Source: Desulfobacterales bacterium (GTDB lineage: Bacteria; Desulfobacterota; Desulfobacteria; Desulfobacterales; SURF-7). From it: a stretch of DNA of 64,000 bases. How positions within the stretch are numbered: position 1 is the stretch's first letter; every line of letters starts with the position of its first letter. The notes beneath the pieces are model-generated. The model had not been told where the DNA came from. It did no database searches and saw nothing but the letters and a program-made list of their open reading frames with translations. The stretch spans positions 45,468 to 109,467 of the forward strand of contig JAWOIJ010000053.1 in NCBI GenBank assembly GCA_046484745.1, written 5' to 3'. This document shows, piece by piece, positions 47,426 to 64,000 of the stretch. The position numbers and the translations under genes were made by a program.

Positions 47426-49807
47426 ATGGAACCCGAACTGCTAACTCCCGAACAGATTGCCGAAGACCGTGTCGGAAGATTGAGGCAAAGGCTGATCAAC
47501 GCGCCGCAGGAAGTTTGTGTTGAAAGGGCCCGATATCTGACACAGGCCATGAAGGAAAACTGGGACAAAGACCATCTGACACGGATGAGTCTCGCGCTCG
47601 AGAAAATTCTGCACAACATTAGCATCGCCATCCGGGAGGATGAAATTATCGTGGGCTGCCGTACGAGCAAGCTGAAAGGCGCTCCGCTCTTCCCTGAAAA
47701 CAAGGTTCGATGGCTTGCAATCGATGTGGAAAATTTTGACAGGCGGATGGTTCAACGCGCACTCATACGGGAAAATGAAAAACAGGAGCTTTTGAATGAT
47801 ATTATTCCGTTCTGGGAAGGAAAAACCGTTGAAGACCGATATGAGGCACTCCTTCCGGATGAGATCGCGGAAGATGTGGATAAATATGTTTTTACCTTTA
47901 TGCTGCAAATAACCTATGGAATCGGCCATTTTACAATGGATCACGCCAAGGTTCTTGCCATGGGGCTTTCCGGAATCATTGACGAGGCACAAAACAGGCT
48001 GGGACTCCTTTCTGAAAAAGAGAAAGCTGGTGAAACCGGAAAGTTTTACGAATCGGTAATCCGATCTCTCCATGCGGCGATTCATTTTGCCCGAAGATTC
48101 TCGAAGCTGGCTTCACAGATGGCCGGAGAAGCGAATGATCCGGTCAGAAAAAAGGAACTGGAGGAGATCGCTCTGGTGTGCAGCCGGGTTCCTGAAAAAC
48201 CCGCTGAAACCTTTCATGAAGCGGTGCAGAGTTTCTTTTTTATTCATCTGATTTCTCAGATCGAATCCGGCGGAAATTCGATTTCACTGGGACGAATCGA
48301 TCAGGTTTTGTATCCTTTTTATAAAAAGGATCTGGAGAGCGGTAAGATTACGCCGGCTAAAGCAAGAGAGCTCCTCTCACTCCTTTTTCTCAAAATCGGA
48401 GAATTATGGAATGTGCTCGAAGAGGCTTATATCCCCGGCGGGGAGGGGACAGAGGGAAAAACAACGCAGAATGTCACTGTCGGGGGTATTGACAGAACCG
48501 GAGCCGATTCTACCAATGAGCTGAGCTATATCGGTCTGGATGCATATGCGGCTATCCGGACGGTCCAACCCAATTTTGGTGTACGCCTCAGTAAAAAATC
48601 TCCGGAGTTTTTCTTCATGAAGGCAATCGAGTATGCCAAAGACGGGGTTCTTCTTCACTTTCTCAATGACGATGCCATTGTTCCCTCTCTCATCCATGCC
48701 GGGCATGCAGAGGAGGATGCGAGAGACTACGGCGTTGTCGGCTGCCTGGAACCCAATGCGCAGGGGAAAACGTTCGGTTCCACATTTGCCGCGCAATTCA
48801 ACGGGTGCAAGTGCCTCGAATTCGCGTTGAGCAACGGGGTGGACAATATTTTCGGCTACACCTCCGGTCTTGAAACAGGCGATCCCGCCGATTTTAAAAC
48901 ATTTGAAGATGTCTGGTCGGCATATGACCGTCAGGTCATTCATTTTATCGGCCAGTTAACCGGTGGAATGGAGTGCCTTGACCGGGCAATCTCCGAACTG
49001 GTTCCGTCCCCGTTTGCTTCGGCAATGATCGAAGGCCCTCTTGAAAAAGGAATGGATCTCACAAAGGGCGGTGCCGTATACAACTCAACCGGGGTCCAGA
49101 TCATGGGCTTTTCCAATATAGCGGACAGCCTTTATGCGGTTAAAAAAATGGTGTTTGAGGAAAAGAAATTCTCGTTTGCCGATCTGGTCAAGTGGCTTTC
49201 GGACGACTGGATGGATGCAGAAGATAAACAGGTTTTTTTCCGAAACAAGGTTGAAAAATACGGCAATGACATCGGCCCGGTAGATGAGATGGCCGTGAAA
49301 GTAGCCGGGCATTTTTGTGATGTTCTTGAAAAATACCGCAATTTTCGAGGCGGAGCGTATTGGCCGGGAATTTTTTCCGTAGGGTTTCATATCACCATGG
49401 GCGCATTCACTGCAGCGACTCCAGACGGCAGGTTTGCCGGAGATGCTCTGGGAAACGGGGTTACGCCCAGCAATGGCCTTGCGGTCTCAGGTCCTACTGC
49501 GATTATGAATTCAGTCAGCAAGCTCCCCCTGCGGCGGATTTATAATGGAATGAATCTCAATATGCGTTTTCAGGGAAAAAAGATAAAAAGTCGTGACCTC
49601 ATGTCTCTGATAAAAACGTATTTTGGTAATGGAGGATTTCAGGTTCAATTCAACATGGTTGATTCCGATACGCTTCGAAATGCGCAGGCAAAGCCTGAGA
49701 GTTATCGGGATCTTGTTGTCAGGATCAGCGGATATTCCGGTATATTTATCAGCCTGAGCGATATCGCCCAGGATGAGATCATCAGAAGAACCGAATATGA
49801 AATGTAA
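47426..49807 (+). CDS. glycyl-radical enzyme, PFL2/eliminase-type (GRE-2), paralog of GRE-1
   Basis: 793 aa. Cys loop VVGCLEP (Cys440 codon 48743..48745, Glu442). Glycyl radical motif LVVRISGYSGIFISL (Gly769 codon 49730..49732). Confidence 0.92.
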   Translation: MEPELLTPEQIAEDRVGRLRQRLINAPQEVCVERARYLTQAMKENWDKDHLTRMSLALEKILHNISIAIREDEIIVGCRTSKLKGAPLFPENKVRWLAIDVENFDRRMVQRALIRENEKQELLNDIIPFWEGKTVEDRYEALLPDEIAEDVDKYVFTFMLQITYGIGHFTMDHAKVLAMGLSGIIDEAQNRLGLLSEKEKAGETGKFYESVIRSLHAAIHFARRFSKLASQMAGEANDPVRKKELEEIALVCSRVPEKPAETFHEAVQSFFFIHLISQIESGGNSISLGRIDQVLYPFYKKDLESGKITPAKARELLSLLFLKIGELWNVLEEAYIPGGEGTEGKTTQNVTVGGIDRTGADSTNELSYIGLDAYAAIRTVQPNFGVRLSKKSPEFFFMKAIEYAKDGVLLHFLNDDAIVPSLIHAGHAEEDARDYGVVGCLEPNAQGKTFGSTFAAQFNGCKCLEFALSNGVDNIFGYTSGLETGDPADFKTFEDVWSAYDRQVIHFIGQLTGGMECLDRAISELVPSPFASAMIEGPLEKGMDLTKGGAVYNSTGVQIMGFSNIADSLYAVKKMVFEEKKFSFADLVKWLSDDWMDAEDKQVFFRNKVEKYGNDIGPVDEMAVKVAGHFCDVLEKYRNFRGGAYWPGIFSVGFHITMGAFTAATPDGRFAGDALGNGVTPSNGLAVSGPTAIMNSVSKLPLRRIYNGMNLNMRFQGKKIKSRDLMSLIKTYFGNGGFQVQFNMVDSDTLRNAQAKPESYRDLVVRISGYSGIFISLSDIAQDEIIRRTEYEM

Positions 49808-49827: not shown

Positions 49828-50763
49828 ATGGAAAAGGTGATGACAATCAAAGAGGCGGTTTCCAGGTTTGTTCGATCAGGAGATTTCCTGTATATCGGCG
49901 GATATATCTGCAGACCTCCTTTCTCGGCGATTCATGAAATTATCAGGCAGGGGCTCAAGGATCTGACCATAACCCGATGCAATGCCGCTGATGATTTTGA
50001 CATGCTGATCGGCGCGGGCGCTGTAAAGCGTTTTATCGGGACATTTCTTTCCCTTGGGGTATATGGGCTTGGCCGCTGCTACAGGCGATCAATTGAAAAG
50101 GGAATTCCGCATAAGGTTGAAGTGGAAGAATACTCCAACCTGTCGCTTCCGATGATGCTTTTTGCAGGATCGATGGGGATGCCTTTTGTTCCGGTTAAAG
50201 ATATGGTGGGGACCGACCTTTTAAATGTCAGATCATTTATGGGGGACAACAAATACAAAATGATCGATTCTCCGTTTGATGGAAGCCCGACACTTCTGGT
50301 CCCGGCGCTGCACCCTGATGTCGCGATCATTCATGTACAGCAGGCTGACAAGTACGGCAATGCGCAGATATGGGGTATTGCCGGTGACTGTCAGGCAGGA
50401 GCCAATGCTGCCGAAAAGGTCATTGTTTCCTGTGAACGGATCGTTGACCGGGAGATAATCGGGAAAGACCCTTCGCGCACGATCGTTCCTTCTTTCAAGG
50501 TGGTGGCGGTTGTGGAAGAACCGTTTGGAGCTCATCCCGGGTATACTCCCGGATTTTATGATGTGGATTTTTCATACGGTTATCTGTATCAGCAGGCCTC
50601 CAATACGGTTGACGGGTTTAATGATTTTTTAAAAGAATGGGTATATGACATAGAAGACCGGAATGCATACATACAGCATTTCATTGAACGCTTCGGGTAT
50701 GAGGTATTCAGCAAGCTTCAGGCGGATTTTGATTACAGCTATCCGGTTAGCTATGCCTATTAA
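49828..50763 (+). CDS. CoA-transferase subunit A (family I, glutaconate-CoA-transferase-like)
   Basis: MTIKEAVSRFVRSGDFLYIGGY and ALHPDVAIIHVQQADKYGNAQIWG are typical of the alpha subunit. Confidence 0.82.
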   Translation: MEKVMTIKEAVSRFVRSGDFLYIGGYICRPPFSAIHEIIRQGLKDLTITRCNAADDFDMLIGAGAVKRFIGTFLSLGVYGLGRCYRRSIEKGIPHKVEVEEYSNLSLPMMLFAGSMGMPFVPVKDMVGTDLLNVRSFMGDNKYKMIDSPFDGSPTLLVPALHPDVAIIHVQQADKYGNAQIWGIAGDCQAGANAAEKVIVSCERIVDREIIGKDPSRTIVPSFKVVAVVEEPFGAHPGYTPGFYDVDFSYGYLYQQASNTVDGFNDFLKEWVYDIEDRNAYIQHFIERFGYEVFSKLQADFDYSYPVSYAY

Positions 50764-50805
50764 AGATAATTAAAAACTTTTTAAAGCTTCTTGCGGAGTG
50801 GAAAC

Positions 50806-51606
50806 ATGACAAACAGTTTGAAGGAATATATCAAACCGGAGTTGATGGCGTGCTGCGGGGCAAGGGAAATCAAAGACAATGATATTGTTATCGTGGGCAC
50901 CGGCTTTCCGACCATGTCCGCCAATATCGCCAAGCAGACACACGCACCGAATGTAATATTGATGCAGGAATCCGGCGTGATCGATGCCCGGCCCAAACGG
51001 CCGGCGCTGTCAGTCGGAGATCCCTGTCTTAACCCGGGCGCGGCAATGGTGGGAGGGCTTCTGGAAATTATGGGAATGTGCCTTCAGGCCGGATGGGTTG
51101 ACGTAGGTTTTCTGTCCGGAAGCCAGGTAGACAAGTTCGGAAATATCAACACCACGGTAATTGGTGATTATCACAAACCCAAAAGCCGTCTGCCCGGAAG
51201 CGGAGGTGCGAATCCAATCGGATCCCTGGTGAAAAGGACATTGATCATTGCGTTGCATGACAAAAGACGGCTGGCGGGAAAAGTCGATTTTATTACGACA
51301 CCCGGCTATATTGACGGGCCCGATGCAAGACGGAAATGGGGACTTCCGCCGGAGACCGGTCCGGAATGTATTATTACGAATAAAGCGGTATTGAGGTTTG
51401 ATTCGGAGAGCCGGGAGGCTTATCTGGCTTCTTTTCATCCCGGATCTTCGGTAGAGGAAATCCTTGAAAACACCCCCTGGGACCTCAAGGTCGCGGAAGA
51501 TGTTCATGAAACAGAACCGCCCACGGTTGAAGAGCTGAAAGCGATTCGGGAGGTGCTGGATCCCCACAGAATGATCAGTATGTATGAAAAGCGCGGATAT
51601 GTATAG
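50806..51606 (+). CDS. CoA-transferase subunit B (family I)
   Basis: VGTGFPT, candidate catalytic Glu in LMQESGVID, DKFGNINTTVIG, PGSGGANPI. SD GGAGTGG precedes ATG 50806; the track TTG 50791 is upstream. Confidence 0.82.
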   Translation: MTNSLKEYIKPELMACCGAREIKDNDIVIVGTGFPTMSANIAKQTHAPNVILMQESGVIDARPKRPALSVGDPCLNPGAAMVGGLLEIMGMCLQAGWVDVGFLSGSQVDKFGNINTTVIGDYHKPKSRLPGSGGANPIGSLVKRTLIIALHDKRRLAGKVDFITTPGYIDGPDARRKWGLPPETGPECIITNKAVLRFDSESREAYLASFHPGSSVEEILENTPWDLKVAEDVHETEPPTVEELKAIREVLDPHRMISMYEKRGYV

Positions 51607-51708
51607 AACCAGTTCCATCAATGATTTTTAAAATCCGTTTCGGTTATACTGTCTAAATTTTGTCCGGCATTAAACGGGATGGATATTTGACCTGTAATGG
51701 AGGAATCA

Positions 51709-53076
51709 ATGGATCATACCAGAAAGCTGGCTGATTTTTGTTCAGACCTGTCACTTAAGGAACTCCCCCCGGAAGTCATTCACATGGCAAAACGATGCGT
51801 GCTGGATTATATCGCCAACATTTACGGTTCACTTCAACTCGATGCGGTACAGCGGGTGATCTCATACATCAAGACGATTCAAAAAAACGGGGATACAACC
51901 GTTCTGGGCTGTGATTTTAAAACCAGCATACATCTGGCCGCTTTTATTAACGGTACCACCGCAGAGGCCATAGAAGCGCAGGATGGCGTCCGTTTTGGAG
52001 GCAACCATCCCTGTGCGGCCGTCATCCCGGCAGCTTTTGCCGTGGCGGAACAAAGAAATTCAGGCGGCGGCAGATTCATAGAAGCGGTGGTTGCCGGATA
52101 TGAGGCGGCCAACAGACCGGCTGCCGCCATGCATCCCTGGCATACACTTTCAGGGTTTCTGCCAACAGGGACTTGTGGCACATTCGGAGCGGCAGCAGCA
52201 GCAGCCAAACTCAGCGATTTTACCGCAGACCAGATGTTGAATGCCATTGCAAACGCGGGCTATATTCTTCCCATTTCCATGGCGGAACATTTAATGGGAG
52301 GATATACCATAAAAATCGTTCAGGGCGGACAGGCGGCCGGTGCCGGAATTATGGCTTCCGGTCTTGCCGGAGCTGGTCTTACCGGCACCCCCTTTGTTCT
52401 TGAAGGCTCCGAACTGAACGGAGGGTTCACCAAGATCACCACGCAGGTAGCGCCGAAATTTAATCTGATCTCCGATGACCTGGGAAAGAAATATTCCATC
52501 ATGGATGTCTATTTCAAACCCTATACAGCCTGCCGGCATACCCATGGTGCAGCCCAGGCAGCCCTTGAACTGGCAAGGGAAAATAAAATTGGACCGGAAG
52601 ATGTTAAAACCGTTGAAGTACATACATACGGAATCGCGGAACTGGCTGTTGGAAAAGGCGTAGCGGAAAATGATACTTTTGTATCCGCCCAGTTCTCTAT
52701 TCCCTATGTTGTTGCCGTGTGCCTGTCAGATGGCGAACTCGGTCCGAAACAGCTTACGGAAAAGAGACTGGCGGATTCCAACCTGATCGAGCTTTCCAGA
52801 AAGATTCGTGTAACAACAGACGAAAAACTGAACCAGGCATATCCGGATAAAACCAGCAGCCGGATTGAAGTCTGCTTGAAAAATGGAGAAATCCTGAAAA
52901 AGCAGATTGATATTCCAAAAGGAGATCCGCGGGATCCAATGGATGTGGATGACATTGCCGCAAAGATTAAAAATTTTGCAGACCAACGCGATCCTCAGAA
53001 GCTCGATGAACTGATCGGGATGATCCTCGAGCTTGAAAAGGTGGACAGTGTTCGAAGAATTATAGAAATGATTTAA
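51709..53076 (+). CDS. MmgE/PrpD-family protein (2-methylcitrate-dehydratase superfamily)
   Basis: LADFCSDLSLKELPPEVIHMAKRCVLDYIAN and FKPYTACRHTHGAAQAAL are characteristic of the family. Confidence 0.85.
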   Translation: MDHTRKLADFCSDLSLKELPPEVIHMAKRCVLDYIANIYGSLQLDAVQRVISYIKTIQKNGDTTVLGCDFKTSIHLAAFINGTTAEAIEAQDGVRFGGNHPCAAVIPAAFAVAEQRNSGGGRFIEAVVAGYEAANRPAAAMHPWHTLSGFLPTGTCGTFGAAAAAAKLSDFTADQMLNAIANAGYILPISMAEHLMGGYTIKIVQGGQAAGAGIMASGLAGAGLTGTPFVLEGSELNGGFTKITTQVAPKFNLISDDLGKKYSIMDVYFKPYTACRHTHGAAQAALELARENKIGPEDVKTVEVHTYGIAELAVGKGVAENDTFVSAQFSIPYVVAVCLSDGELGPKQLTEKRLADSNLIELSRKIRVTTDEKLNQAYPDKTSSRIEVCLKNGEILKKQIDIPKGDPRDPMDVDDIAAKIKNFADQRDPQKLDELIGMILELEKVDSVRRIIEMI

Positions 53077-53142
53077 TGCAGGCTCTGGTCTGAATTTTTG
53101 CCGGAACCCTGTAGAAGGATCGACAATATACAAGGAGGACAA

Positions 53143-54303
53143 ATGGACTTTAGTTTGAACAAAGAACAGACCATGTTGATACAGTCTCTTCAGGATATGG
53201 GAAAAAGAGAAAAGTTCACGGAACTTGCCGCGGAAACAGACAGAACAGGGGAATTCCCTCATTATTTAATGCAAAAGTATGCGGAGATGGGGCTGATCGG
53301 CATGTCTCTTTCCCCGGAGTACGGAGGAGAAGGCGAACCTTCACTCACGGCCATTCTGGCTATTGAAGCACTGGCAAAATACAGTCCCATGATTGCCGCA
53401 CCTGTTTTCGAGTCCAATGTCGGTCCGGTCAGGGTGATTGACATGTTCGGCACTGATGAACAGAAAAAGCGTATTATTCCCGGTGTCTGTAAAGGAGAGT
53501 TCAGCGTATCGGTCTGCATGACGGAGCCGGAGGCAGGTTCGGACCTGACGTCTCTTTCCACGATACTTGAAAAAAAGGATGGCCATTATGTTCTAAATGG
53601 CCGGAAATCCTTTATCACAGGTGGCGGTATGGCCAGTCATTATCTGGTTTATACCCGATTTGGTGATGTAAAGGGATATAAGGGCATCGGTGCGGTTATT
53701 GTCGAAAAGGGAACGCCCGGCTTCAGCTTCGGGAAACAGGAAGAGTTCATGGGGCTCCGCGGGATGCCTTCATGTGATCTTTTTTTTGACGACGTTGCTG
53801 TTCCGGAGGAAAATATCGTCATCCGCCAGGGTGATTTCGGCAACCTCATGCTGACTTTTGATATCGAGCGATGCGGGAATGCCGCGATGTGCCTTGGAAT
53901 CGCCGGCGGCGCTCTCGATTTTGCCAGGGCCTATGCTCTGGAGAGAAAAGCGTTTGGCCGTCCGATCTGCGAATTTCAGGATATTCAGTTTATGATCGCG
54001 GACATGGCCATGAAACTCGATGCGGCCCGTCTTCTTGTATATCGCGCTGCAAACGGGGCGGGCCAGGGGCTGCCGTCAATCTATGAAGCTTCCATGGGAA
54101 AATGTTTTGCCAATGAGATGGTGCGGGAGGTTACGGATAAGGCCATGCAGATACTGGGAGGCTACGGATACAGCAAAGAATTTCCCGTTGAACGGATGCT
54201 CCGGGACAGCCGGGCATGGGGCGTGGCCGGGGGAACCCTTCAGATGCTGAAGGTGACCATGGCCAGTATTGTTTTCGGCAGGCGCTTTGACCAGAGAAAA
54301 TAG
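53143..54303 (+). CDS. acyl-CoA dehydrogenase
   Basis: MTEPEAGSDL, KSFITGG and the catalytic-base context GGYGYSKEFPVERMLRDSR. SD AGGAGG precedes ATG 53143. Confidence 0.9.
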   Translation: MDFSLNKEQTMLIQSLQDMGKREKFTELAAETDRTGEFPHYLMQKYAEMGLIGMSLSPEYGGEGEPSLTAILAIEALAKYSPMIAAPVFESNVGPVRVIDMFGTDEQKKRIIPGVCKGEFSVSVCMTEPEAGSDLTSLSTILEKKDGHYVLNGRKSFITGGGMASHYLVYTRFGDVKGYKGIGAVIVEKGTPGFSFGKQEEFMGLRGMPSCDLFFDDVAVPEENIVIRQGDFGNLMLTFDIERCGNAAMCLGIAGGALDFARAYALERKAFGRPICEFQDIQFMIADMAMKLDAARLLVYRAANGAGQGLPSIYEASMGKCFANEMVREVTDKAMQILGGYGYSKEFPVERMLRDSRAWGVAGGTLQMLKVTMASIVFGRRFDQRK

Positions 54304-54399: not shown

Positions 54400-54840
54400 A
54401 TGAGCGAGTATTATCGTGATGCAGATCATCTTTTGGAGATATACGATTATTTTTTATCCAATGTGCTTCAGGACAAGAAGATCGGGCCGAAAATGGCGAA
54501 ATCGAACATCATTATCAAGTTTATATACACCGATCCGGATTGTGAAATCACAATTGATTTTAAAAATCCGCCGGAAAAAGAAGGCTACTTCGGCAACTTT
54601 TATCTGGGACCGACTCCTCTTAAAGAAGATGTATGGTCCAAACAGAGCGCGGATCACTCGCATCGATTCTGGCATGGTTTTGAAAATCCGATCGCGGCGG
54701 TTACGAGAGGGAAGGTAAGGCAGGGCGGAAAGATAACGGCCATGCTGAAACTGCTGCCTGTTGTCAAGCCCACCTTTAAAAGGTTCCCGGAGATTCTGAA
54801 GGAAATGGGTTACGAAAATCTGATCGTTCATAAAAAATAA
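54400..54840 (+). CDS. SCP2 (sterol-carrier-protein-2-like) lipid-binding domain protein
   Basis: IIIKFIYTDPDCEITIDF...AVTRGKVRQGGKITAMLKLLPV resembles the SCP2 fold pattern. 146 aa. Confidence 0.55.
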   Translation: MSEYYRDADHLLEIYDYFLSNVLQDKKIGPKMAKSNIIIKFIYTDPDCEITIDFKNPPEKEGYFGNFYLGPTPLKEDVWSKQSADHSHRFWHGFENPIAAVTRGKVRQGGKITAMLKLLPVVKPTFKRFPEILKEMGYENLIVHKK

Positions 54841-54886: not shown

Positions 54887-56755
54887 ATGAAAGGCAATAC
54901 AGGGAAAATCATCGAGATTGATCTCAGCACTGAAAAGTTTAACATAACGGATCTGCCTGAAGCGTACTACAAAAAATATATCGGGGGAAGCGGTCTTGCC
55001 GCTAAATATTTCTGGGGAAAGGCTGATTTTAATGCGGAGCCATTGTCCGAAGGCGCCATGCTTCTGTTCATGAACGGGCCTTTTGCCGGCCTTAAACTAT
55101 CCGGGGCAAGCAGAAACTGTGTGGCAGGACGATCTCCTCTTACCGGAAATTGGGGAGATTCCTCCTGTGGCGGATATTTTGCTCCTGAGCTTCGATATGC
55201 CGGGTATGATGGTATCGCCATAACCGGCAAAGCAAAATCACCCGTTATTATTGATATCCACGGAAAAACAATTCAGCTGCTGGATGCCGCCAAGTATTGG
55301 GGCAGGGGAATCGAAGATACCAACAATGGCCTGAAAGCGGAATTCGGGAAGGATTGCCGAACGCTGGTTATCGGACCTTCCGGAGAAAACGGTGTCCGGT
55401 ATTCCTGTATCATCGGCGAGGGGCATCACACCTTTGGAAGAGCCGGCTATGGAGCGGTGATGGGCTCGAAAAATCTGAAGGCGATCACGGTAAAGGCTGA
55501 ACAGAGAAAAATGGATCTCGCCGACCCGGAGAAATATCAGGCGCTGCGAAAGGAGATCAATGAAGGGATTCGCAATTCGATGACTGCAGAAGTACTTCAT
55601 GAACTCGGAACGTCCGCCAAACTGGAAGTCGGTGTCTATGATGGTGATGTCCCCATCAGGAACTGGACATCAAACTACTGGGAGGAGATGGCTGAAGCCT
55701 TGACCGGAAGCACCCTTGCCGAAAAATATCTCACCCGAAGGGGATCCTGCGCTTTCTGCAGTATCGCCTGCAAGCGGATTGTGGAAGTAAAGGAGGGGCC
55801 GTTTCATATTCCCGAAGGTCCCGGACCTGAGTATGAGACCATTGTCTCTTTTGGCGCGCTCCTGGGATCAATGGATCTGGCGGCTGTGTGCAAAGCCGGA
55901 CGCGTATGCAATGACCTGGGATTGGACACCATATCCGCCGGCGGAACCATCGCGTGGGCAATGGAAGCCTTTGAAAAAGGGGATCTGACGGTTGAAGATA
56001 CCGATGGTGTGACGATTGCCTGGGGTGATATGAAAACAGTTATTGATGTTCTTCTGCCGGGTATTGCCGCTAAAAAAGGAAAACTCGGCGCCCTTCTCGC
56101 TGACGGGAGTGTCGCGGCAGCTAAAAAAATCGGAAAAGATTCGATTCGATACACGGCCCATTCAAAAGGCCTCGAAGCTCCGATGCATGACCCGAGAGGC
56201 GGGGGGCACGGAATGGCTCTTACTTACGCTGTCAGTCCCAGAGGCGGTTGCCATGTTTCAAGCCCGATGCTTTCGATAGAGGCCGGCGCCCGTTACTATC
56301 CGGAGATTGATTTTGAATATGATCTGGAGCCCATGACAGACGAAAACAAACCAGAGGCTGCCGTTACCGCCATCGAACTCGGAAGCATTGAAAACAGTGC
56401 CTGCTATTGCGAGTTCGCAGACCGGGAGATAACCATGCCCCAGTGGGTTGGCCTGTTTAACACCGTCGCGGGATATCCATGGGATATCAAAGAAATGATG
56501 CGGTCCGGCAGGAGAGTTTTTTATCTGAAGCGCATGATTAACTACCTGTATGGCCGCCGGGCGGCTGATGATGACCTGACGCCCAGAATGCTGTCAAAGG
56601 CAGTTGATGGAGAGCCCGAAGGAATCGAAATCAATTTCAGCGGGATGAAAAACAAGTTCTATCAGCTCACCAGACTTGATCCTGAAAAAGGAATCCCCGT
56701 CAAAGAATGTCTCCGGGAATACGATATGGAGCAGGAAGCTGAAAGGGTGTGGTGA
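54887..56755 (+). CDS. aldehyde:ferredoxin oxidoreductase (tungstopterin AOR family), AOR-1
   Basis: N-terminal YIGGSGLAAKYFW, GRSPLTG, [4Fe-4S] ligands in GSCAFCSIAC, the DTISAG pterin-binding segment and C-terminal AFOR_C. Confidence 0.9.
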   Translation: MKGNTGKIIEIDLSTEKFNITDLPEAYYKKYIGGSGLAAKYFWGKADFNAEPLSEGAMLLFMNGPFAGLKLSGASRNCVAGRSPLTGNWGDSSCGGYFAPELRYAGYDGIAITGKAKSPVIIDIHGKTIQLLDAAKYWGRGIEDTNNGLKAEFGKDCRTLVIGPSGENGVRYSCIIGEGHHTFGRAGYGAVMGSKNLKAITVKAEQRKMDLADPEKYQALRKEINEGIRNSMTAEVLHELGTSAKLEVGVYDGDVPIRNWTSNYWEEMAEALTGSTLAEKYLTRRGSCAFCSIACKRIVEVKEGPFHIPEGPGPEYETIVSFGALLGSMDLAAVCKAGRVCNDLGLDTISAGGTIAWAMEAFEKGDLTVEDTDGVTIAWGDMKTVIDVLLPGIAAKKGKLGALLADGSVAAAKKIGKDSIRYTAHSKGLEAPMHDPRGGGHGMALTYAVSPRGGCHVSSPMLSIEAGARYYPEIDFEYDLEPMTDENKPEAAVTAIELGSIENSACYCEFADREITMPQWVGLFNTVAGYPWDIKEMMRSGRRVFYLKRMINYLYGRRAADDDLTPRMLSKAVDGEPEGIEINFSGMKNKFYQLTRLDPEKGIPVKECLREYDMEQEAERVW

Positions 56756-56825
56756 TTGGTTAGGGCGGTTGTCAGAAAAACGTTCCGTTTCGATGCGCCG
56801 AAGATGATGAACCTCATTTGCTGGT

Positions 56826-56948
56826 TTACGGATGTTGATCGTTTCTAAACTCGCTTTGCTGAAATTAAAAAACTCAGCCGCTGCGCGGCTTCAAACAGTT
56901 TTAATTTCAATGCTCCGCTTCGTTAAGAAACGACAACAACATCCGTAA
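56826..56948. repeat. 123-nt imperfect long inverted repeat between convergent transcription units
   Basis: The left arm ttacggatgttgatcgtttct...gctgaaattaaaa pairs with the right arm ttttaatttcaatgc...agaaacgacaacaacatccgtaa. The apex is agccg-ctgcg-cggct. Confidence 0.7.
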
Positions 56949-57232
56949 AAGGCTTCACTCGGTTTCATCCTCTTCGGATTCAATCGGAATAGAATTATGA
57001 CAATCATTATAAAGCTGGTTTTAAAAATTCCCTTTGAGGGGGAGACACTGAAAACAAGACCGGCAAAAGATATGTTGTCCACAGGCATCCTGCAGAACAG
57101 CCAATACACACTTGATCCGGAAGTTCGTTTTGAAAACAATGCAAAAATCTATACCGTGACCACTCAATCCGGTAAATTCACTGTTCGCGGTGATGTTATG
57201 CTCCGAAGATTTTGGCAGAACTGAAGCGATAG

Positions 57233-57802
57233 CTAAGGGTAGATTGTACTCAGGTAAAAGATCGAGTCTTCTTTTTTAATAAATATATTGAAGTAAATTT
57301 CATTACCTGCATTTTGGATAATCCTTTCCAAATCAATTAATCCATTTGAATCTGAGACGCTATTTTCTATGGTTTTTTTACTTGAGGTTTGAATGATTAA
57401 TTTTTCACCCGGACCAGGTTGTTGCTCACCACAAAGTACGATCCGACCTGTTTGGACGTTCCCATGATGTTTTTTTTCTGTTCCTGCTGCTTCCGCCCAC
57501 GCCCGTTGCAATACAAAACTGCCTACATGCGGTGTGGCTATTGCCGCTGGTGTTGCGAGAACCGCTGCCGCTTCGATGGCACGCTTCTTTTTTTCCTTGT
57601 AAACCTCCATTTCTTCCTGCATCTCCATACATATGGGCTGCTTTACCAGGAAAAATTGACCGGCTTTTGTTTCAAGCTTATATGCATACGTGATTTGTTC
57701 ACCCGCATACTTTTCCCCTTTAACGATCTCGGCTTCTGCATAGGCGGTGAAGAAAAATATGATAAAGAACAAAAAAAGTGAGCGAATTTTATTGGTCTTC
57801 AT
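57233..57802 (-). CDS. secreted hypothetical protein
   Basis: 189 aa. Signal peptide ...FFFTAYAEA. No family recognised. Confidence 0.5.
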   Translation of the reverse strand: MKTNKIRSLFLFFIIFFFTAYAEAEIVKGEKYAGEQITYAYKLETKAGQFFLVKQPICMEMQEEMEVYKEKKKRAIEAAAVLATPAAIATPHVGSFVLQRAWAEAAGTEKKHHGNVQTGRIVLCGEQQPGPGEKLIIQTSSKKTIENSVSDSNGLIDLERIIQNAGNEIYFNIFIKKEDSIFYLSTIYP

Positions 57803-57843
57803 TCTGATATCCTTTCATGACGACCGGTGTTCTGGTTTAACGA

Positions 57844-58671
57844 CTACTCCAGGACCGGGAACATTCCTTTTTCATGCATTATTGCAAGGCCATAATACGA
57901 AAGGCCGAAATTAATAACCGTCTTTTCACTTGTATACGGAGCAGGGTCCTTTTTTATGACAAAAGAATAAATCTGTTTGAACGGATAAGCCCTATCCTTT
58001 GGAGATCGTTTGTCTATGGTTAAAATTTTTATGGATTCTTCACCGGTAAGAGCGCCATTGGTCATAAAGGATATAGAGCCGGGTTTTTCTTGGACCTCCT
58101 CGATAACGGCAACAGAACGGTCAACGATTACATCATATTTGATCTCTCTCATCTGCATCACATTCATCCTGAAATTCTGATACGCTCCTGTCTCTTCTCC
58201 TGGAACAATAACTTCTATTTTCCGGTCTGCCCCTCCAAGTTCTTTCCAGTTGGACAGCCGTCCGCTGAAGATATCCCGTATTTGGTTCAATGAGAGATTG
58301 CTCAAGAGGCACGGCGTACCCGTTCCGGAATTAACATTTGTGAAAACCGCAATGGAATCGTAACAAAAGGGGATTTCAATATACCCCTTCTTTTTCAGTT
58401 CATCAGGCACTCCGAGTGAAATCAATGCGATATCGCTCGCATCATTGACCAGCCGATCCAACGCTTTGTGCGATGGGCCATTATAGATCTGAACAGGAAT
58501 CCCGAAAAAATTTTGAAAATCGATTACGATTTGTTTCCCATATGCTTTTGCAATCTGAGAAGAACAGGCAAAGCGAATACCTGAATTCGCATATGCCGGT
58601 AAAATAAGAATTGTAAAAAACAGCAGTGATAGCAGATTACAAAAGAGAAACATTGAAATAAATTTTTTCAT
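57844..58671 (-). CDS. PstS-like periplasmic substrate-binding domain protein (PBP_like_2)
   Basis: Signal peptide. LSLNQIRDIFSGRLSNWKELGG is the hallmark phosphate-binding-protein-family segment. No permease or ATPase genes are adjacent. Confidence 0.65.
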   Translation of the reverse strand: MKKFISMFLFCNLLSLLFFTILILPAYANSGIRFACSSQIAKAYGKQIVIDFQNFFGIPVQIYNGPSHKALDRLVNDASDIALISLGVPDELKKKGYIEIPFCYDSIAVFTNVNSGTGTPCLLSNLSLNQIRDIFSGRLSNWKELGGADRKIEVIVPGEETGAYQNFRMNVMQMREIKYDVIVDRSVAVIEEVQEKPGSISFMTNGALTGEESIKILTIDKRSPKDRAYPFKQIYSFVIKKDPAPYTSEKTVINFGLSYYGLAIMHEKGMFPVLE

Positions 58672-58996
58672 ATTTATTTCTCCTGATTAAGCAATTGAGT
58701 ATTGGAGTAAACCAGCACCAGCACGACGGATGGCTATAATTGGGAGAAAACCATACATTAGAATTGAAATAGATTGTGAAAACTTTAACGCAGCTATCAA
58801 TAAGTTGTCAAATGAAAAAAGAATGGCAAACCGTCCGGGATCGTTTCTCCTGCCATTAACAATGCCGACTATGGTATCGTTAATTCCATACAGGTTGTGA
58901 CAACTTCTGAAATTGACGCATTTCTCATTACGGAAGTGATAAGAATGAATCACCTGATAAAAAATCCGCGAATTGCCGATATCGTATACTTGATTT

Positions 58997-59224
58997 TTAC
59001 AAAATAACCATGGTTATGGCATCTGTCGGACAATCCTCCGCGCAACTTCCGCAACCGGTGCAAACAGATTCATTCAGCAGGTTTGGATACTTATGGTTTG
59101 GTATGCCGCCGCTTGCCACGGACATGGACAGACAGTCCACCGGACACGTATCAATGCATATTACGCACGAGTTGCATTTTTTGATGTTAAACTGGGGGAT
59201 TTTCTTTTCCTTATTGTTCGTCAT
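58997..59224 (-). CDS. 2x[4Fe-4S] ferredoxin
   Basis: CNSCVICIDTCP and CTGCGSCAEDCP. 75 aa. Confidence 0.9.
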   Translation of the reverse strand: MTNNKEKKIPQFNIKKCNSCVICIDTCPVDCLSMSVASGGIPNHKYPNLLNESVCTGCGSCAEDCPTDAITMVIL

Positions 59225-59284
59225 GCCGAGTACCTCATTTTTATTGCCACCGGATTGGTTTATTGCCCATGGTCGCCTTCATCA

Positions 59285-61279
59285 TTATGAATCTTTTTTT
59301 GAATCTTCGAGGCCAAGCCGGTTGAGTGATGAAGCCGAAGGCTCTCCGGTTTGGGGATCCCAGCCAAATTCTCGCCAGTAGTCCGACATCATGGTTTCCA
59401 GATCCACGGTGCGGCCTTTGTTTGCGCCCTCCTTTCGGGGCGGCAGCCCCAGGGCGCGCGGAGCGGCTTTTACTTCCCCTGGTTTGATTCCGTGCTTGAC
59501 ATTAAATGCCTGACGCAGGGTCTGAATCCGTGCTCCGATTTCCATATATTCCTCCGGGGTTTTATTCCACCCGGTGGCCGCGTTGAACCACTCAAAAACA
59601 GGAAAGCGAGGGGTTCCCATAAAAGCCGCAAACAAACAGGCACCGGCTCCATTTAAGAGGCTCATGTATTTACTGCATGCCGCACCCATGGCGGCCTTTG
59701 CTTCATCAGCCACATACTTTTTGTCTTTATGATAAATCATGGAAAAGAGCCCGAATCTGGGAACATTTTTTACCCGTTTCCAGAGCTGATACATTTCGTA
59801 ATACATCTGGGATCCAATGGTGTGTCTGCCGGGTGTCGGTTCAACGGCATAGTGAAGGTTGTAACCGGGATCATTTCGGCCATCATGCATCGGCAGGTCC
59901 TGGCCACCCACCTGGGAAGCATATTGCATGGCATTCAGCCCCAGTTTTTCCGCAGCCTTTTTGGATCCGTCCGCCAGAAGATCCCCGATCCCTTCCCGCT
60001 CGATCATTTTTTTCAGCAGGGCAATAATGGCTTCGGTGTTGCCCCAGCTTAGTTCAAGCCCATCGGTGTCTTCGGTGGTCAGCAGCGCTTTTTCAAAGCA
60101 TTCAATGGCAAATGCAACTGCCGAGCCTGCGGAAATGGTATCCATTCCCGCCCGGTTCAGCAGTTCGTTCATATAAAAAAGGCTGTCCGGGTCTTCATTC
60201 ATGCACAGGCCGCCAAGTGCCAAAACCGTTTCATATTCGGGTTTGTGGGTTTCACTGAATTCCCCTCCGGTTTTACCTTTGATTGCACATATGCCGCCGC
60301 AGCCCAGGGGGCAGGAATAGCAGTGATATTTAACCATTTCACATTCCGTAAACACATCGGGATTTATCGGTTTTGACTTTTTGGGCCCGAAATCCTTATT
60401 GCTTCCCAACCAGTTTTTAACCGGTGCATCACCCATTTCGATGCTGGCCTGATTCATACTGACGGTTCCCCATTTCCGCAGCATGATTTTATACAGAAGA
60501 CCATCCTGTACCATCTGGGTGGGCAATATTCGAAGCAGTGCGCCAAGGTAAGCCGTCATGGGGCCGGATAGAAACGGCGGCTGAAACTGGACCCATTTAT
60601 TGCACTTTTTGCTCAGCTTTTTCATTTCGTCACGGTTATGGGGAATCACTTTTTTAACGCCTGATAAAACCACCGCTTTCAGTTTTTTAGAACCCATTAC
60701 CGCGCCCAAACCCGAACGGGCGGCCATTCGTCCTCTGTCGTTTGAAATTCCTGAAATCAGGGAAAGCTTCTCACCTGCCGGGCCAATGCAGACGATACGG
60801 GGCTTTTTTTTAGCGGTAGATCGTTCAAGCAGAATTTCTTCCGTTTCAATGGCGTCTTTGCCCCAGAGATCAGAGGCATCCCGAAGCTCCGCCTTTCCTT
60901 TTTCTATGGATAGATAAACCGGTTTTTCACTGATACCGGTAAAAAAGATTCCATCATAACCGCATCTTTTAATCGCCGGTGAAAATGTTCCGCCGCAATT
61001 GGCATCACCCCATCCTCCGGTCAAAGGAGATTTGCCCACCACCATCCAGCGTCCGGTAAACAGACTTCCTGTGCCGGTCAGCAGACCGGATACAAAACCG
61101 AGCATATTTTCCGGCCCAAGAGGTTCCGCGTCTTTCGGAATGTTTTTGTACAGCATGTAAGCGCCCAGACCCAGGCCGGAGAGAACTTTTTCATAGACTT
61201 CATCCGGAATGACTTCCTCCTGAATCTGACCGCTGCTTAAATCCACCCGCAGCACTTTGCCCATATATGCGTGTCCCAT
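59285..61279 (-). CDS. aldehyde:ferredoxin oxidoreductase (tungstopterin AOR family), AOR-2
   Basis: LSGLGLGAYMLY, GKSPLTGGWGDANCGG, Cys cluster YHCYSCPLGCGG, DTISAGSAVAFA. 664 aa. SD AAGGAGAGGA. Confidence 0.9.
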   Translation of the reverse strand: MGHAYMGKVLRVDLSSGQIQEEVIPDEVYEKVLSGLGLGAYMLYKNIPKDAEPLGPENMLGFVSGLLTGTGSLFTGRWMVVGKSPLTGGWGDANCGGTFSPAIKRCGYDGIFFTGISEKPVYLSIEKGKAELRDASDLWGKDAIETEEILLERSTAKKKPRIVCIGPAGEKLSLISGISNDRGRMAARSGLGAVMGSKKLKAVVLSGVKKVIPHNRDEMKKLSKKCNKWVQFQPPFLSGPMTAYLGALLRILPTQMVQDGLLYKIMLRKWGTVSMNQASIEMGDAPVKNWLGSNKDFGPKKSKPINPDVFTECEMVKYHCYSCPLGCGGICAIKGKTGGEFSETHKPEYETVLALGGLCMNEDPDSLFYMNELLNRAGMDTISAGSAVAFAIECFEKALLTTEDTDGLELSWGNTEAIIALLKKMIEREGIGDLLADGSKKAAEKLGLNAMQYASQVGGQDLPMHDGRNDPGYNLHYAVEPTPGRHTIGSQMYYEMYQLWKRVKNVPRFGLFSMIYHKDKKYVADEAKAAMGAACSKYMSLLNGAGACLFAAFMGTPRFPVFEWFNAATGWNKTPEEYMEIGARIQTLRQAFNVKHGIKPGEVKAAPRALGLPPRKEGANKGRTVDLETMMSDYWREFGWDPQTGEPSASSLNRLGLEDSKKDS

Positions 61280-61290
61280 ATCCTCTCCTT

Positions 61291-62478
61291 TTACCAGGTG
61301 TAGGCTTCATTCAGTACATTCAAGGCGTCCTTTTCATCCATTTCCAGGGGATTAAAAGTCAGCGTACCGTCATTGATGGCCGTTTGTGCAATGCTTTCCA
61401 GCTGGCTTCTGGACACACCGGCCTCTTTTAAATTTCGAGGCAGACCACAGAGATCATGAAGGGTCTGCTGCAGCTTTCGAACCAGCACAATTGTTCTTGC
61501 CGCCCGCCGTTCTTCGGGCATTTTGGTATACTCTTCCATGCCGCCAAAGGGGAGCAATAGCTCGGCCACATATTTTTTCGTTTTTTCAAGATTGTATTCC
61601 AGTCCGATGGGTAAAAATATCGACATGGCCATGCCATGTGGTATGTGGCAGATTGCACCGACGGAATGCCCCAGCGCATGAACCATCCCGCACATGGAAT
61701 TGGAAAAGGCAGCCCCTGCCATGGTCGAAGCATTGGCCATGGCTGAACGGGCATTCTCGTCATTCCCGTCCTCTACCGCTTTGCACAGGTTTTCGCTGAT
61801 CAGCTTGATGGCGGCAAATGCATAGGCATCGCTCAAGGGATTTTTTTGCAGACAGGTGTATGACTCCATGGCATGGGTCAACGCATCCATGCCGGTGGCA
61901 GCCGTGATATGCGGCGGCATGGTTATGGTCATGCGTGGATCGAGTATGGCAACTTTGGGAAACAGAAGATGGGAGGCAAAACCCATTTTTACATTTTTTT
62001 CCGTATTCTTTATCACGGCGGCAAGGGTTACCTCTGACCCGGTTCCGGCTGTTGTGGGAATAACGACAAACGGCTGCATCGGTTTTTTCAGTCTGTCCGC
62101 GCCTTCAAATTCCATCAAATCATTGGAATTTTCACTGATCACGATGTTGACGCCCTTGGCGGTATCAATGGGGGAACCACCTCCGACAGCCACGATGGCA
62201 TCACAGCCGTTTTCACGGTAAACCGTTACAATGTCGTTCACCACTTTAGTGGATGAATCCGGCGGAACATCGTCATAAATGGCACCGATGGTCATGCCGG
62301 AACTGTCAAACGCGGTTTTGACATGCTTCATCAATCCGGCCTTTACCACTCCCTTGTCGCTGATAATGATCGGCCGGTTCACCCCCAGCTGATCAAGCTC
62401 ATAAGGAAGATTATCAAGTGCCTTTTTCCCTGACAGAATCTTTACGGGATTAAAAAATTCATAATAGCTGGGCAGCAT
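61291..62478 (-). CDS. iron-containing (group III) alcohol dehydrogenase
   Basis: VAVGGGSPIDTAKG, TTAGTGSEVT and metal-His contexts DALTHAMES and HALGHSVGAICHIPHG. Confidence 0.92.
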   Translation of the reverse strand: MLPSYYEFFNPVKILSGKKALDNLPYELDQLGVNRPIIISDKGVVKAGLMKHVKTAFDSSGMTIGAIYDDVPPDSSTKVVNDIVTVYRENGCDAIVAVGGGSPIDTAKGVNIVISENSNDLMEFEGADRLKKPMQPFVVIPTTAGTGSEVTLAAVIKNTEKNVKMGFASHLLFPKVAILDPRMTITMPPHITAATGMDALTHAMESYTCLQKNPLSDAYAFAAIKLISENLCKAVEDGNDENARSAMANASTMAGAAFSNSMCGMVHALGHSVGAICHIPHGMAMSIFLPIGLEYNLEKTKKYVAELLLPFGGMEEYTKMPEERRAARTIVLVRKLQQTLHDLCGLPRNLKEAGVSRSQLESIAQTAINDGTLTFNPLEMDEKDALNVLNEAYTW

Positions 62479-62536
62479 AATTGGCTCCTATGGTATGAGG
62501 TTATTTTTGATGGTTTCACAAAAAGTCCATTTTCGG

Positions 62537-63061
62537 TTATAGCCCGAAAGGCACGCCGATAACATTGACGACAACTTTAGTCATCATTTTTTTCAGCGTT
62601 AACGGCGGCACCCGTTTAAGCAAACGTTTGCAGATAAATTTCGGATAAAGAAGTGTTAACAGGGTGTTCAGGCAGCGGGTAAATGCCATCGCGTAGGCAA
62701 TGTCGCCTTTAACCGTCATTCTTCGCTCTGCAAATGCCTGAGCTGAGCCTATCTGAGGGGTCAGTACCAGAAAAGCACATTCAAGATTCTTAAAATTAAC
62801 CACCAGGTCGCCATCATCATATTTTGTACCGCGGTATTTAAGCCGGCCATTTATTTTTTTCATTGCCATTCGCGGGCCAAAAGGCAGAACATTCATAATG
62901 ATGATAAACCCTTCGGGCCATGCGGAAACTTCTTTTTTGATGTCTGAATCGTGTCTGGCTCCCGACTGAAAGGCCCGCCCCAAAACCATGAATACGATTT
63001 TGGCTATCAGGGCTTTAAACCATTTTTTCCCCGGTTTGATCGGGCGATATTTTTTACCCAT
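62537..63061 (-). CDS. hypothetical protein, possibly SCP2-like
   Basis: 174 aa from ATG 63061 (SD GGAAGGAG). AFAERRMTVKGDIAYAMAFTRCLN resembles the terminal helix region of SCP2 domains. Weak call. Confidence 0.45.
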   Translation of the reverse strand: MGKKYRPIKPGKKWFKALIAKIVFMVLGRAFQSGARHDSDIKKEVSAWPEGFIIIMNVLPFGPRMAMKKINGRLKYRGTKYDDGDLVVNFKNLECAFLVLTPQIGSAQAFAERRMTVKGDIAYAMAFTRCLNTLLTLLYPKFICKRLLKRVPPLTLKKMMTKVVVNVIGVPFGL

Positions 63062-63224
63062 GATGACTCCTTCCATATTGAATTTCAGTATTCCCGAAAG
63101 CTGACGAAAACCGCTACCATTACCCGGAGGGTTGCTTTTGATCCGGGCATCCGATCCCTTTGTTTCCATTCCGGATGATAATTCCCAAAACGGCAGAGAA
63201 TACGATATTGGACCGATAAGGTGG

Positions 63225-63791
63225 CTATCGTGCCATTTTTAATAAATAGCGGACGATATCCTTGACCGCAATATTCTGGATTTTCAGCATGGATTGAATG
63301 ATGAGACCATCCAGAACCGCTACCAGTATGGTTGCAAGAACTTCGAAATCGCTCTGTCCCGGAAGGATTTTTTCAAGGCCTTCTTCCATGGTTTCAAACC
63401 AGTGCCGATAAGTTGCAATAAACCTTTCTTTCAAAACCTTGTTTTCAGTCAGGGCCTCCCGGATCAGGTAAAGATGCAGCCGGCTTCTGGTTTCCGCCTG
63501 TAATATGGTTTCCACCATGGCGGTTAAAACCGTTTCAGGAGATGGCGGCTCTTCGATCCGGTCAATCAGCATAAACAGATCATTTGAGATCTGTTCGATG
63601 TGATCCACCGCGATATCAAAAATCAGGTCATTTTTCGTTGCGTAATAATAGTACAGGGTGCCCTTGCTGATACCGATTTCACGCGCGATATCCGACAGGC
63701 TGGCATTATCGATCCCTTTTTGAATGATCAGGCGGGTTGCACCATCGATAATTGTCTTTTTTTTCTGAACATGTTTGTTATTGGGCGCCAT
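63225..63791 (-). CDS. TetR/AcrR-family transcriptional regulator
   Basis: N-terminal HTH ASLSDIAREIGISKGTLYYYYATKNDL plus a helical ligand-binding domain. 188 aa. Confidence 0.92.
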   Translation of the reverse strand: MAPNNKHVQKKKTIIDGATRLIIQKGIDNASLSDIAREIGISKGTLYYYYATKNDLIFDIAVDHIEQISNDLFMLIDRIEEPPSPETVLTAMVETILQAETRSRLHLYLIREALTENKVLKERFIATYRHWFETMEEGLEKILPGQSDFEVLATILVAVLDGLIIQSMLKIQNIAVKDIVRYLLKMAR

Positions 63792-64000
63792 TTTTCTCCA
63801 AAATTCGGCCAGCCGGCCGAATCATGAATTCTTCTAACATGATGCCCTGAATTCTGTCAAGAGGTTCCAGATCGTTATCGGCGGTTGCGGGAAAGTGAGT
63901 AAAACCATCTTTGACGACCTGTTTCTTTTTTCATGGTTCCCCTGCGGTTCAACAGCTCTTTTTATATCGTTGACACACAATTTTTTCTTGAATATACAAA

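Follow-up and report, generated by a model that had tools for sequence, protein, structure and literature searches.

Two separate gene sets for aldehyde conversion, a glycyl radical enzyme operon and an alcohol dehydrogenase/aldehyde oxidoreductase cassette, probably brought together at a repeat element in a Desulfobacterales genome

A stretch of 64,000 nucleotides from the genome of a Desulfobacterales bacterium of the SURF-7 lineage (GenBank assembly GCA_046484745.1, contig JAWOIJ010000053.1, positions 45,468 to 109,467 of the forward strand; hereafter the window, whose contig is labelled C93 in this genome of 4.3 Mb) encodes two converging sets of genes for aldehyde conversion. On the plus strand (44.87-56.76 kb), an operon containing a glycyl radical enzyme (GRE), named here GRE-2, ends with an aldehyde:ferredoxin oxidoreductase (AOR-1). 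On the minus strand (63.86-59.0 kb) lies a cassette coding for a TetR-family repressor, an SCP2-fold protein, an iron-dependent alcohol dehydrogenase (Fe-ADH), a second AOR (AOR-2) and a ferredoxin (Table 1). An earlier note, made from the letters of the window, had read everything from AOR-1 to TetR as a single module in which the aldehydes released by the GREs would be dismutated to acid and alcohol. The open reading frames (ORFs) that it named are all present at the coordinates claimed, and their family assignments hold in the ORF list and the family scans. The observation is therefore confirmed and its interpretation is supported only in part: the 44.87-63.86 kb region probably consists of two independent transcription units, whose convergent adjacency would be a recent accident at a repeat element.

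Table 1. Genes and other features of the two transcription units and of their junction (positions in the window)
Feature	Position	Strand	Evidence or remark
PadR-type operator, TATATAC-N16-GTATATA	44876-44905		upstream of padR, preceded by a CTTGAC box; operator region 44874-44907
PadR regulator, first gene of the operon	44955-45497	+	PF03551, 8.3e-19; syntenic in relatives
Two short-chain dehydrogenase/reductase (SDR) genes: epimerase-like (328 aa) and classical (276 aa)	45494-47371	+	order conserved, 64-79% identity
GRE-2, diol-dehydratase-like glycyl radical enzyme	47426-49807	+	PFL-like, 1.7e-191, and Gly_radical
CoA-transferase A and B, PrpD/MmgE-like protein, acyl-CoA dehydrogenase (ACAD)	49828-54303	+	order conserved, 60-84% identity
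SCP2-fold protein SCP146 (146 aa), core operon member	54400-54840	+	fold match, no Pfam match
AOR-1 (622 aa), optional last gene of the GRE-2 operon	54887-56755	+	AFOR_N and AFOR_C
254-bp dispersed repeat with terminal inverted repeats	56760-57013		junction of the convergent units and synteny breakpoint
Secreted protein (189 aa)	57233-57802	-	accompanies AOR-2 only in the nearest relative
PstS-like binding protein (275 aa)	57844-58671	-	PBP_like_2, 2.3e-23
2x[4Fe-4S] ferredoxin (75 aa), dedicated partner of AOR-2	58997-59224	-	two CxxCxxCxxxCP motifs
AOR-2 (664 aa), insertion of about 45 residues after domain 1	59285-61279	-	AFOR_N and AFOR_C
Group III Fe-ADH (395 aa)	61291-62478	-	Fe-ADH, 167.9 bits; ADH_Fe_C, 171.6 bits
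SCP2-fold protein (174 aa from M37)	62537-63061	-	SCP2 fold; precedes Fe-ADH in 20 of 21 loci
TetR-family repressor, first gene of the cassette	63225-63791	-	TetR_N, 9.8e-16; syntenic in L033, L034 and L094-L098
Candidate TetR operator, perfect palindrome ATTCGGCC-N4-GGCCGAAT	63803-63822		downstream of a TTGACA box (63860-63855)

The independence of the cassette is apparent from its distribution. Up to 9 kb of DNA on either side of 40 AOR-2 homologues (45-81% identity) was searched with every gene of the 40.9-63.8 kb interval, and 21 further loci were obtained by scanning a collection of species-representative genomes with an alignment of the SCP2-fold protein. None of these 61 related loci carries, within 8-9 kb, a GRE or another gene of the GRE island. 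At the 40 AOR-2 loci, no relative of the GREs, the CoA-transferase, PrpD, PadR or SCP146 was detected, even at an E-value of 1e-3 and without a coverage filter; a ferredoxin homologue follows AOR-2 in 29 of them, an SCP2-fold protein is found with one or two Fe-ADHs in 12, and two genomes of the same family show the exact order TetR, SCP2, ADH, AOR-2, ferredoxin at 55-81% identity. At the loci recovered with the SCP2 alignment, the SCP2-fold gene lies directly before the Fe-ADH in all cases but one, an AOR is adjacent in 16 and belongs to different clades (80-97%, about 45% or 28-35% identity to AOR-2), and no GRE is present. The hosts of these loci are Desulfobacterales metagenome-assembled genomes (MAGs), Desulfosudis oleivorans MAGs, Desulfobotulus alkaliphilus ASO4-4, Desulfatibacillum, a Desulfohalobiaceae MAG and an Anaerolineales MAG. 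From this survey, the cassette is made of two tight pairs, namely SCP2 with Fe-ADH and AOR-2 with ferredoxin, and is not an accessory of GREs.

The same picture emerges at the genome level among 200 other genomes of the order. AOR-2 orthologues (57-81% identity) are encoded in 52 of them, GRE-2 orthologues (62-73% identity) in 14, and relatives (at least 48% identity) of GRE-1, the other GRE of the window, in 17. The earlier note had proposed that conservation of the array in genomes devoid of the GREs would speak against its reading, and this is what was found: of the 52 genomes with AOR-2, 43 have no GRE-2 orthologue, and 35 have relatives of neither GRE-1 nor GRE-2. Five genomes (G168, G043, G086, G101 and G160) possess the full ADH/SCP2/AOR-2 array and lack GRE-1 and GRE-2 orthologues, and four others (G080, G126, G111 and G158) hold both units on different contigs. 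No genome with the cassette was found to be wholly free of GREs, the five genomes tested having other GREs far from the array or on other contigs; for this reason, the claim is limited to the absence of GRE-1 and GRE-2 orthologues and of linkage.

The plus-strand operon, for its part, is conserved as a block. It comprises, in order, PadR, two SDRs, GRE-2, CoA-transferase A and B, the PrpD-like protein, ACAD, SCP146 and AOR-1. The whole block is colinear in G080 and G126 at 64-85% identity, the same order is found in a MAG nearly identical to the source genome (L115), in a metagenome contig at 89% nucleotide identity (L116), in a Desulfobacter MAG (L118) and in a further contig (L121), and across other families the order from PadR to SCP2 and AOR-1 recurs at 57-85% identity. 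The proposal that AOR-1 closes the GRE island is thus borne out, since AOR-1 is the last gene of this operon and its orthologue fills the same slot in six lineages (G080, G126, L115, L116, L118 and L121). AOR-1 orthologues are rare (7 of the 200 genomes); those of G143 and G054 are preceded by an Fe-ADH and an SCP146-like gene instead, forming another SCP2/ADH/AOR trio. An NAD-type aldehyde dehydrogenase (ALDH, PF00171) takes the place of AOR-1 in G111 and G145 and lies directly before SCP146 in L117; in G145 (L088:12156-14090, contig C10) it is fused in frame to the SCP146-type protein through an Ala/Pro-rich linker, in a protein of 644 aa. Over the 14 lineages considered, the slot holds an AOR in six (plus one, likely, across a contig break), an ALDH in three and neither in five. 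As unrelated aldehyde-oxidising enzymes replace each other at a single operon position, there is good comparative evidence that the GRE-2 pathway passes through an aldehyde, which GRE-2 would produce, and this supports AOR-1 as the putative aldehyde-oxidising step after this diol-dehydratase-like enzyme.

Each unit also has a candidate operator of its own. The TetR palindrome is unique in the window, has no other perfect copy elsewhere in the genome and was not found at the GRE-2 operon loci. Its arms are invariant or differ by one change upstream of tetR in L094-L098, where the flanks have diverged, and L036, in which tetR is divergently oriented, shows one change per arm. A putative TetR operator is thus conserved in six orthologous loci, which suggests that the cassette is self-regulated. 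The PadR-type box is conserved upstream of padR in ten GRE-2 operons and occurs only once in the window; it is absent from the cassette. One further, near-identical PadR promoter-operator is present in the genome (C37:8160, L123:5161-5190), about 130 nt before a gene coding for a Zn-dependent alcohol dehydrogenase (Zn-ADH) of 404 aa (L123:5313-6527), which is likely to be the second member of the PadR regulon. The co-regulated ADH of the GRE-2 pathway, if any, would therefore be predicted to be this Zn-ADH and not the Fe-ADH of the cassette. In other genomes, the short PadR pattern before Zn-ADH genes proved unspecific, a control pattern being matched equally often, and no close Zn-ADH orthologue was found in five genomes carrying the GRE-2 operon.

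The junction between the two units coincides with the 254-bp repeat, which lies in the 478-nt spacer separating the stop codon of AOR-1 from the gene of the 189-aa protein and includes inverted arms of 13 nt (56825-56837 and 56937-56949). The repeat gave no Rfam match. It is present in the genome in six full copies (94-100% identity) and about 20 partial ones, the other full copies being located at C17:89496-89748, C77:53878-54129, C18:38747-38997, C45:149523-149773 and C98:32472-32721. Two close relatives (L094, 92-96% nucleotide identity, and L095, 85%) are colinear with the window from a DctP gene through the cassette and then continue into DNA that is located on contig C68 in the source genome. 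In L116 (89% nucleotide identity), AOR-1 leads straight into DNA found on C98 in the source genome, and L115, from the same MAG as L094, stops where the repeat begins. As close relatives lose synteny exactly at the repeat, the convergent adjacency is a peculiarity of the source assembly, due either to recombination between copies of the repeat or to a join made during assembly. These different downstream sequences, together with the TetR operator and the location of orthologous arrays far from GREs, argue against the minus-strand array being the dismutation branch of the GREs.

That C93 itself is chimeric, mis-joined across the repeat so that the two units lie far apart in the real chromosome, is unlikely, with roughly the weight of one chance among several. 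In favour of a mis-join, the junction is exactly a repeat with six nearly identical full copies, the island contig of the near-identical MAG ends at the repeat and its cassette contig runs into C68-like DNA, and an exact-pattern scan of metagenome contigs yielded no independent contig spanning the junction. Against this, the assembler generally got across the repeat, most other copies of which are embedded in long contigs, and on C68 the repeat is represented only by a 97-nt fragment next to a gene end, ill-suited to a simple reciprocal mis-join; on these two grounds a real rearrangement is tentatively favoured. A chimera would in any case be compatible with two separate units and not opposed to them. 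A competitor of the two-unit reading is the single dismutation module itself, in which the AORs would make acid and the Fe-ADH alcohol from the GRE products. The units are physically adjacent in the window, GRE-2 is eliminase-like, and several findings count in favour of some cooperation and weigh on the two-unit reading as a whole. AOR-2 is encoded in 9 of the 14 genomes with GRE-2 versus 43 of the 186 without (odds ratio 6, Fisher p 0.002, uncorrected for kinship and genome size), so that the units may cooperate in trans. Five of the 14 GRE-2 operons do not encode an enzyme for aldehyde oxidation and have to rely on one from elsewhere, and independent regulation is deduced from operators predicted by their conservation. 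A further difficulty is that some GRE-2 operons adjoin transporters, whereas the SCP2 fold suggests a greasy ligand: in L117, L119 and L120 the operon is followed by SBP_bac_3 genes of a polar-amino-acid-type ABC system or by a TAXI-TRAP transporter, a hint that the substrate, in spite of the SCP2-fold protein in the operon, is polar and imported. Nevertheless, a single module is very improbable, given that the linkage is missing from all 61 related loci and is lost even in relatives at 85-96% nucleotide identity, that four genomes carry the units on separate contigs, that the units have separate conserved operators, and that the only other PadR box of the genome precedes a Zn-ADH on C37 and not the Fe-ADH of the cassette.

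Two units acting separately could function as follows. In the operon, release of PadR would allow transcription; GRE-2, activated in trans, would dehydrate its substrate or eliminate a group from it to form an aldehyde; AOR-1 would oxidise this aldehyde, probably handed over by the SCP2-fold protein encoded just upstream, to the acid; and the CoA-transferase, ACAD and PrpD-like protein would then process the acid as a CoA ester. In the cassette, release of TetR would allow transcription of tetR, scp2, adh, aor2 and fd; the SCP2-fold protein would bind and present a poorly soluble alcohol, the Fe-ADH would oxidise it to the aldehyde, AOR-2 would oxidise the aldehyde to the acid, and the electrons would pass to the dedicated 2x[4Fe-4S] ferredoxin. 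The sequence of the cassette is compatible with either direction, and the reverse, reductive course has to be considered as well: reduced ferredoxin would drive the conversion of a carboxylic acid to the aldehyde by AOR-2, from which the Fe-ADH would form an alcohol, and the cassette would serve as an electron sink or for the production of fatty alcohols. Alcohol oxidation is the usual energy-yielding direction in sulfate-reducer lineages, and the relatives carrying the SCP2 loci belong to such lineages (Desulfobacterales). SCP2 and ADH precede AOR and ferredoxin, an arrangement that also matches ADH/AOR pairs engaged in alcohol oxidation (PMC10907483). AORs are, however, reversible, Adh and Aor make ethanol from acetate in fermenting S. 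fructosivorans (PMC10084766), and AOR-dependent acid reduction is reported for Thermoanaerobacter sp. X514 and Aromatoleum aromaticum (PMC10816221, PMC9295118). On balance, a reductive cassette appears improbable, if slightly less so than the single module, and the oxidative direction is preferred for the two independent units.

The identity of GRE-2 could be narrowed down. Its best match among solved structures is the B12-independent glycerol dehydratase 1R8W (568 bits), and it keeps the glycyl motif RISGYSG, the Cys-x-Glu motif (GCLE) and residues aligned to His164 and Ser282 of 1R8W, which places it, on sequence criteria, in the 1,2-eliminase (dehydratase) class of GREs. Asp447 of glycerol dehydratase is replaced by Phe, and the substrate is consequently probably not glycerol. 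The idea that the GREs are dehydratases or lyases thus stands for GRE-2, with the qualification that the Fe-ADH/AOR-2 cassette, invoked to strengthen it, is no evidence on GRE substrates. The ORFs of the 17.9-64 kb interval that were scanned contain no match to a bacterial microcompartment shell domain, and no GRE activase is encoded on the contig of the window. The two GREs of the window (42400-44781 and 47426-49807) belong to a set of eight GRE paralogues in the genome, which also encodes eight AOR paralogues and only four GRE activases. Each activase adjoins another GRE (C14, C32, C35 and C55), and four GREs on C93, C2 and C78 have no activase nearby; activation of GRE-2 in trans is proposed because all four activases adjoin other GREs. 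In G145, an activase gene (L088:14185-15144) follows the ALDH fusion gene.

Other observations concern loci related to this operon. A second locus combining an AOR and a GRE, also without activase, is present in the source genome (L002, G000:C78:8000-27258) and encodes, in order, an ACAD/ferredoxin/nitroreductase fusion of 771 aa, an AMP-forming ligase, an AOR of 578 aa, an unannotated ORF of 204 aa and a GRE of 801 aa. In L118 (Desulfobacter sp. MAG GCA_028770805.1), the GRE-2 and CoA-transferase genes are interrupted by two insertion sequences (Transposase_mut; IS630/DDE_3). In the relative at 89% nucleotide identity, AOR-1 is followed by a convergent array (L116:11879-17738, equivalent to G000:C98:34109-40050) of a glyoxalase-like protein, an epimerase-like SDR, a thiamine pyrophosphate enzyme, a 118-aa ORF, a Zn-ADH and a divergent TetR; the GRE-2 operon may originally have had this array next to it.

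The two AORs are, as the earlier note had it, divergent paralogues, with 29% identity to each other. Both exceed the curated Pfam cut-offs, AOR-1 with AFOR_N at 6.7e-68 (228.8 bits) and AFOR_C at 3.4e-102 (342.9 bits), AOR-2 with AFOR_N at 3.1e-73 (246.2 bits) and AFOR_C at 4e-96 (322.9 bits). Their placement relies on bit scores against solved structures, the best match of both being Pyrococcus furiosus AOR (1AOR; 329 and 316 bits). FOR, WOR5, AorB and BamB score lower than 1AOR for both proteins; an identity as BamB, FOR, GAPOR or WOR5 was rejected in view of scores lower than those to AOR sensu stricto. Both keep the four [4Fe-4S] cysteines, Glu313 and His448 (P. furiosus AOR numbering) and the DxxGLD pterin motif (AGMD in AOR-2). 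The NCBIfam AOR equivalog NF007354 was not reached (186.7 and 190.2 bits versus a cut-off of 868), and both are far below the cut-off of 1300 of the GAPOR equivalog NF040818. Use of tungsten by either enzyme is conceivable, W and Mo not being distinguishable from the sequence.

In the cassette, the ADH/AOR-2 spacer has the predicted 11 nt and bears the strong Shine-Dalgarno sequence AAGGAGAGG, and the AOR-2/ferredoxin spacer has the predicted 60 nt. The translated Fe-ADH contains GGGSPID, with the nucleotide motif GGGS, and MDALTH, VHALGH and HIPHG, which provide the D/H/H/H metal ligands; all its NCBIfam equivalog scores are below the cut-offs, so that no substrate-specific class was reached. 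Further Fe-ADH and AOR pairs are encoded in the source genome on C70 (24941-27986) and on C98, where two regions (82245-86005 and 92734-94569) hold an Fe-ADH/AOR pair and a pair of an Fe-ADH with an SCP146-like gene. Just past the end of the window and divergent from tetR, a lone DctP-type TRAP solute-binding gene (L001:1401-2567), with no DctQ or DctM gene nearby, shares with tetR the 141-nt spacer that bears the operator; this gene is conserved there only in the two closest relatives (L094 and L095).

Downstream of the ferredoxin lie two more genes of the same strand, absent from the first reading, coding for the PstS-like binding protein and the secreted 189-aa protein. They are separated from the ferredoxin by a gap of 325 nt containing a promoter-like site (58811-58782), and they are found beside AOR-2 only in the closest relative (L094), for which reason they are considered an appended unit outside the cassette. 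An 88-aa ORF at 58687-58953 is a doubtful gene, as it has no family match and overlaps the promoter-like site. A role of the 275-aa protein in tungstate binding was rejected: its solved relatives are of PstS type only, no WtpA-type tungstate-binding protein is encoded in the genome, and the gene is not conserved beside AOR-2. A paralogue of this binding protein is encoded about 1.9 kb from another AOR of the genome (G000:C41:74789-79230).

Both proteins that had been called SCP2-like do have this fold, and both miss the Pfam cut-off for the family. Against SCP2 (PF02036), the cassette protein (210 or 174 aa) gave an E-value of 0.013 and 16.2 bits, versus a cut-off of 21.3, and the 146-aa protein gave no match. 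AlphaFold models built from homologue alignments (pLDDT 81.6 for the 174-aa protein; AF2, pLDDT 93.0 for the 146-aa protein) were compared with the PDB by Foldseek, and for each model the top 46 matches are all SCP2 domains, with target-normalised TM-scores of up to 0.68 and 0.76, respectively. The matches include UbiJ-SCP2, the SCP2-like domain of MFE-2 (1IKT; E-value of 2.6e-7 with the 146-aa protein), sterol carrier proteins and the C-terminal domains of alkylsulfatases. The ORF of 210 aa (62537-63169) is present, and its start is most likely at M37, which reduces it to 174 aa; this start is probable because the Shine-Dalgarno sequence GGAAGGAG precedes the ATG and close homologues are mostly of 174-175 aa. 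For the 146-aa protein, 392 homologues were collected, to none of which a function is assigned by any source. As in the earlier note, the SCP2 fold suggests that the substrates could be hydrophobic.

Routes in two steps through an ADH and an AOR, and GRE dehydratases accompanied by aldehyde-oxidising partners, are already known. In Desulfofundulus kuznetsovii, alcohols are oxidised by an ADH and an AOR encoded side by side (PMC10907483), and Adh3929 and Aor2487 interconvert ethanol and acetate in Solidesulfovibrio fructosivorans (PMC10084766). Compared with these pairs, the cassette has in addition (i) a constant SCP2-fold partner of the ADH, (ii) a dedicated ferredoxin of 75 aa and (iii) a TetR with a conserved candidate operator, and its substrate is probably neither methanol nor ethanol; the literature searched contained no description of this constant SCP2-fold partner, dedicated ferredoxin and operator. 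Both AORs share the cysteine ligands, Glu313, His448 and pterin motifs with P. furiosus AOR, from which they differ in being distant and bacterial and, for AOR-2, in the insertion of about 45 residues between domains 1 and 2. AorABC of Aromatoleum aromaticum (8C0Z) is a bacterial member of the same family (230-235 bits) and has a polyferredoxin subunit and an FAD subunit, whereas AOR-1 has no gene after it and AOR-2 only that of a small 2x[4Fe-4S] ferredoxin. GRE-2 is closest to glycerol dehydratase (1R8W) and propanediol dehydratase (5I2A), with which it shares the Gly, Cys-x-Glu, His and Ser residues. As in GRE diol dehydratase systems with disposal of the aldehyde by enzymes of the PduP/PduQ type, an aldehyde-oxidising gene is part of the same operon. 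The pdu systems oxidise the aldehyde by the CoA-acylating PduP; the GRE-2 operon differs from them by a non-acylating AOR or ALDH combined with a CoA-transferase, by the lack of a shell domain among the ORFs scanned and of an activase on the contig, and by the replacement of Asp447. The two small SCP2-fold proteins share their fold with SCP2 domains of lipid enzymes (MFE-2, 1IKT; alkylsulfatase SdsA1, 2CFU; UbiJ-SCP2, 6H6O), and one homologue is fused to an ALDH; they differ from these domains in scoring below the Pfam SCP2 cut-off.

In summary, the separation of the two units keeps a wrong functional link out of the annotation, as the Fe-ADH/AOR-2 cassette is not usable as evidence on the substrates of either GRE, and it illustrates that a gene neighbourhood in a draft assembly can arise through a rearrangement borne by a repeat or an assembly join at one. 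For the GRE-2 operon, AOR-1 and the ALDH that replaces it, once in fusion with SCP2, narrow down the possible substrates of an operon that is widespread in the Desulfobacterota and uncharacterised. A broader proposal, put forward tentatively and rather less likely to be right than wrong, is that SCP2-fold proteins are dedicated substrate-handling partners of the aldehyde enzymes of anaerobes, one family preceding Fe-ADHs associated with AORs of varied clades and the other belonging to a GRE operon or to an ALDH fusion. They could provide a carrier-assisted route holding reactive, poorly soluble aldehydes between enzymes, and the GRE-2 operon could represent a new glycyl-radical pathway with an interchangeable AOR or ALDH; the literature search returned no paper on SCP2 partnered with Fe-ADH, AOR or ALDH in anaerobes. 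The SCP2/Fe-ADH/AOR/ferredoxin cassette is common in bacteria of the sulfate-reducer type, where it lies, elsewhere than in this window, far from such radical enzymes. With a functionally unannotated SCP2 member and a clean candidate operator, it is an easy target for finding out which alcohols these bacteria oxidise.

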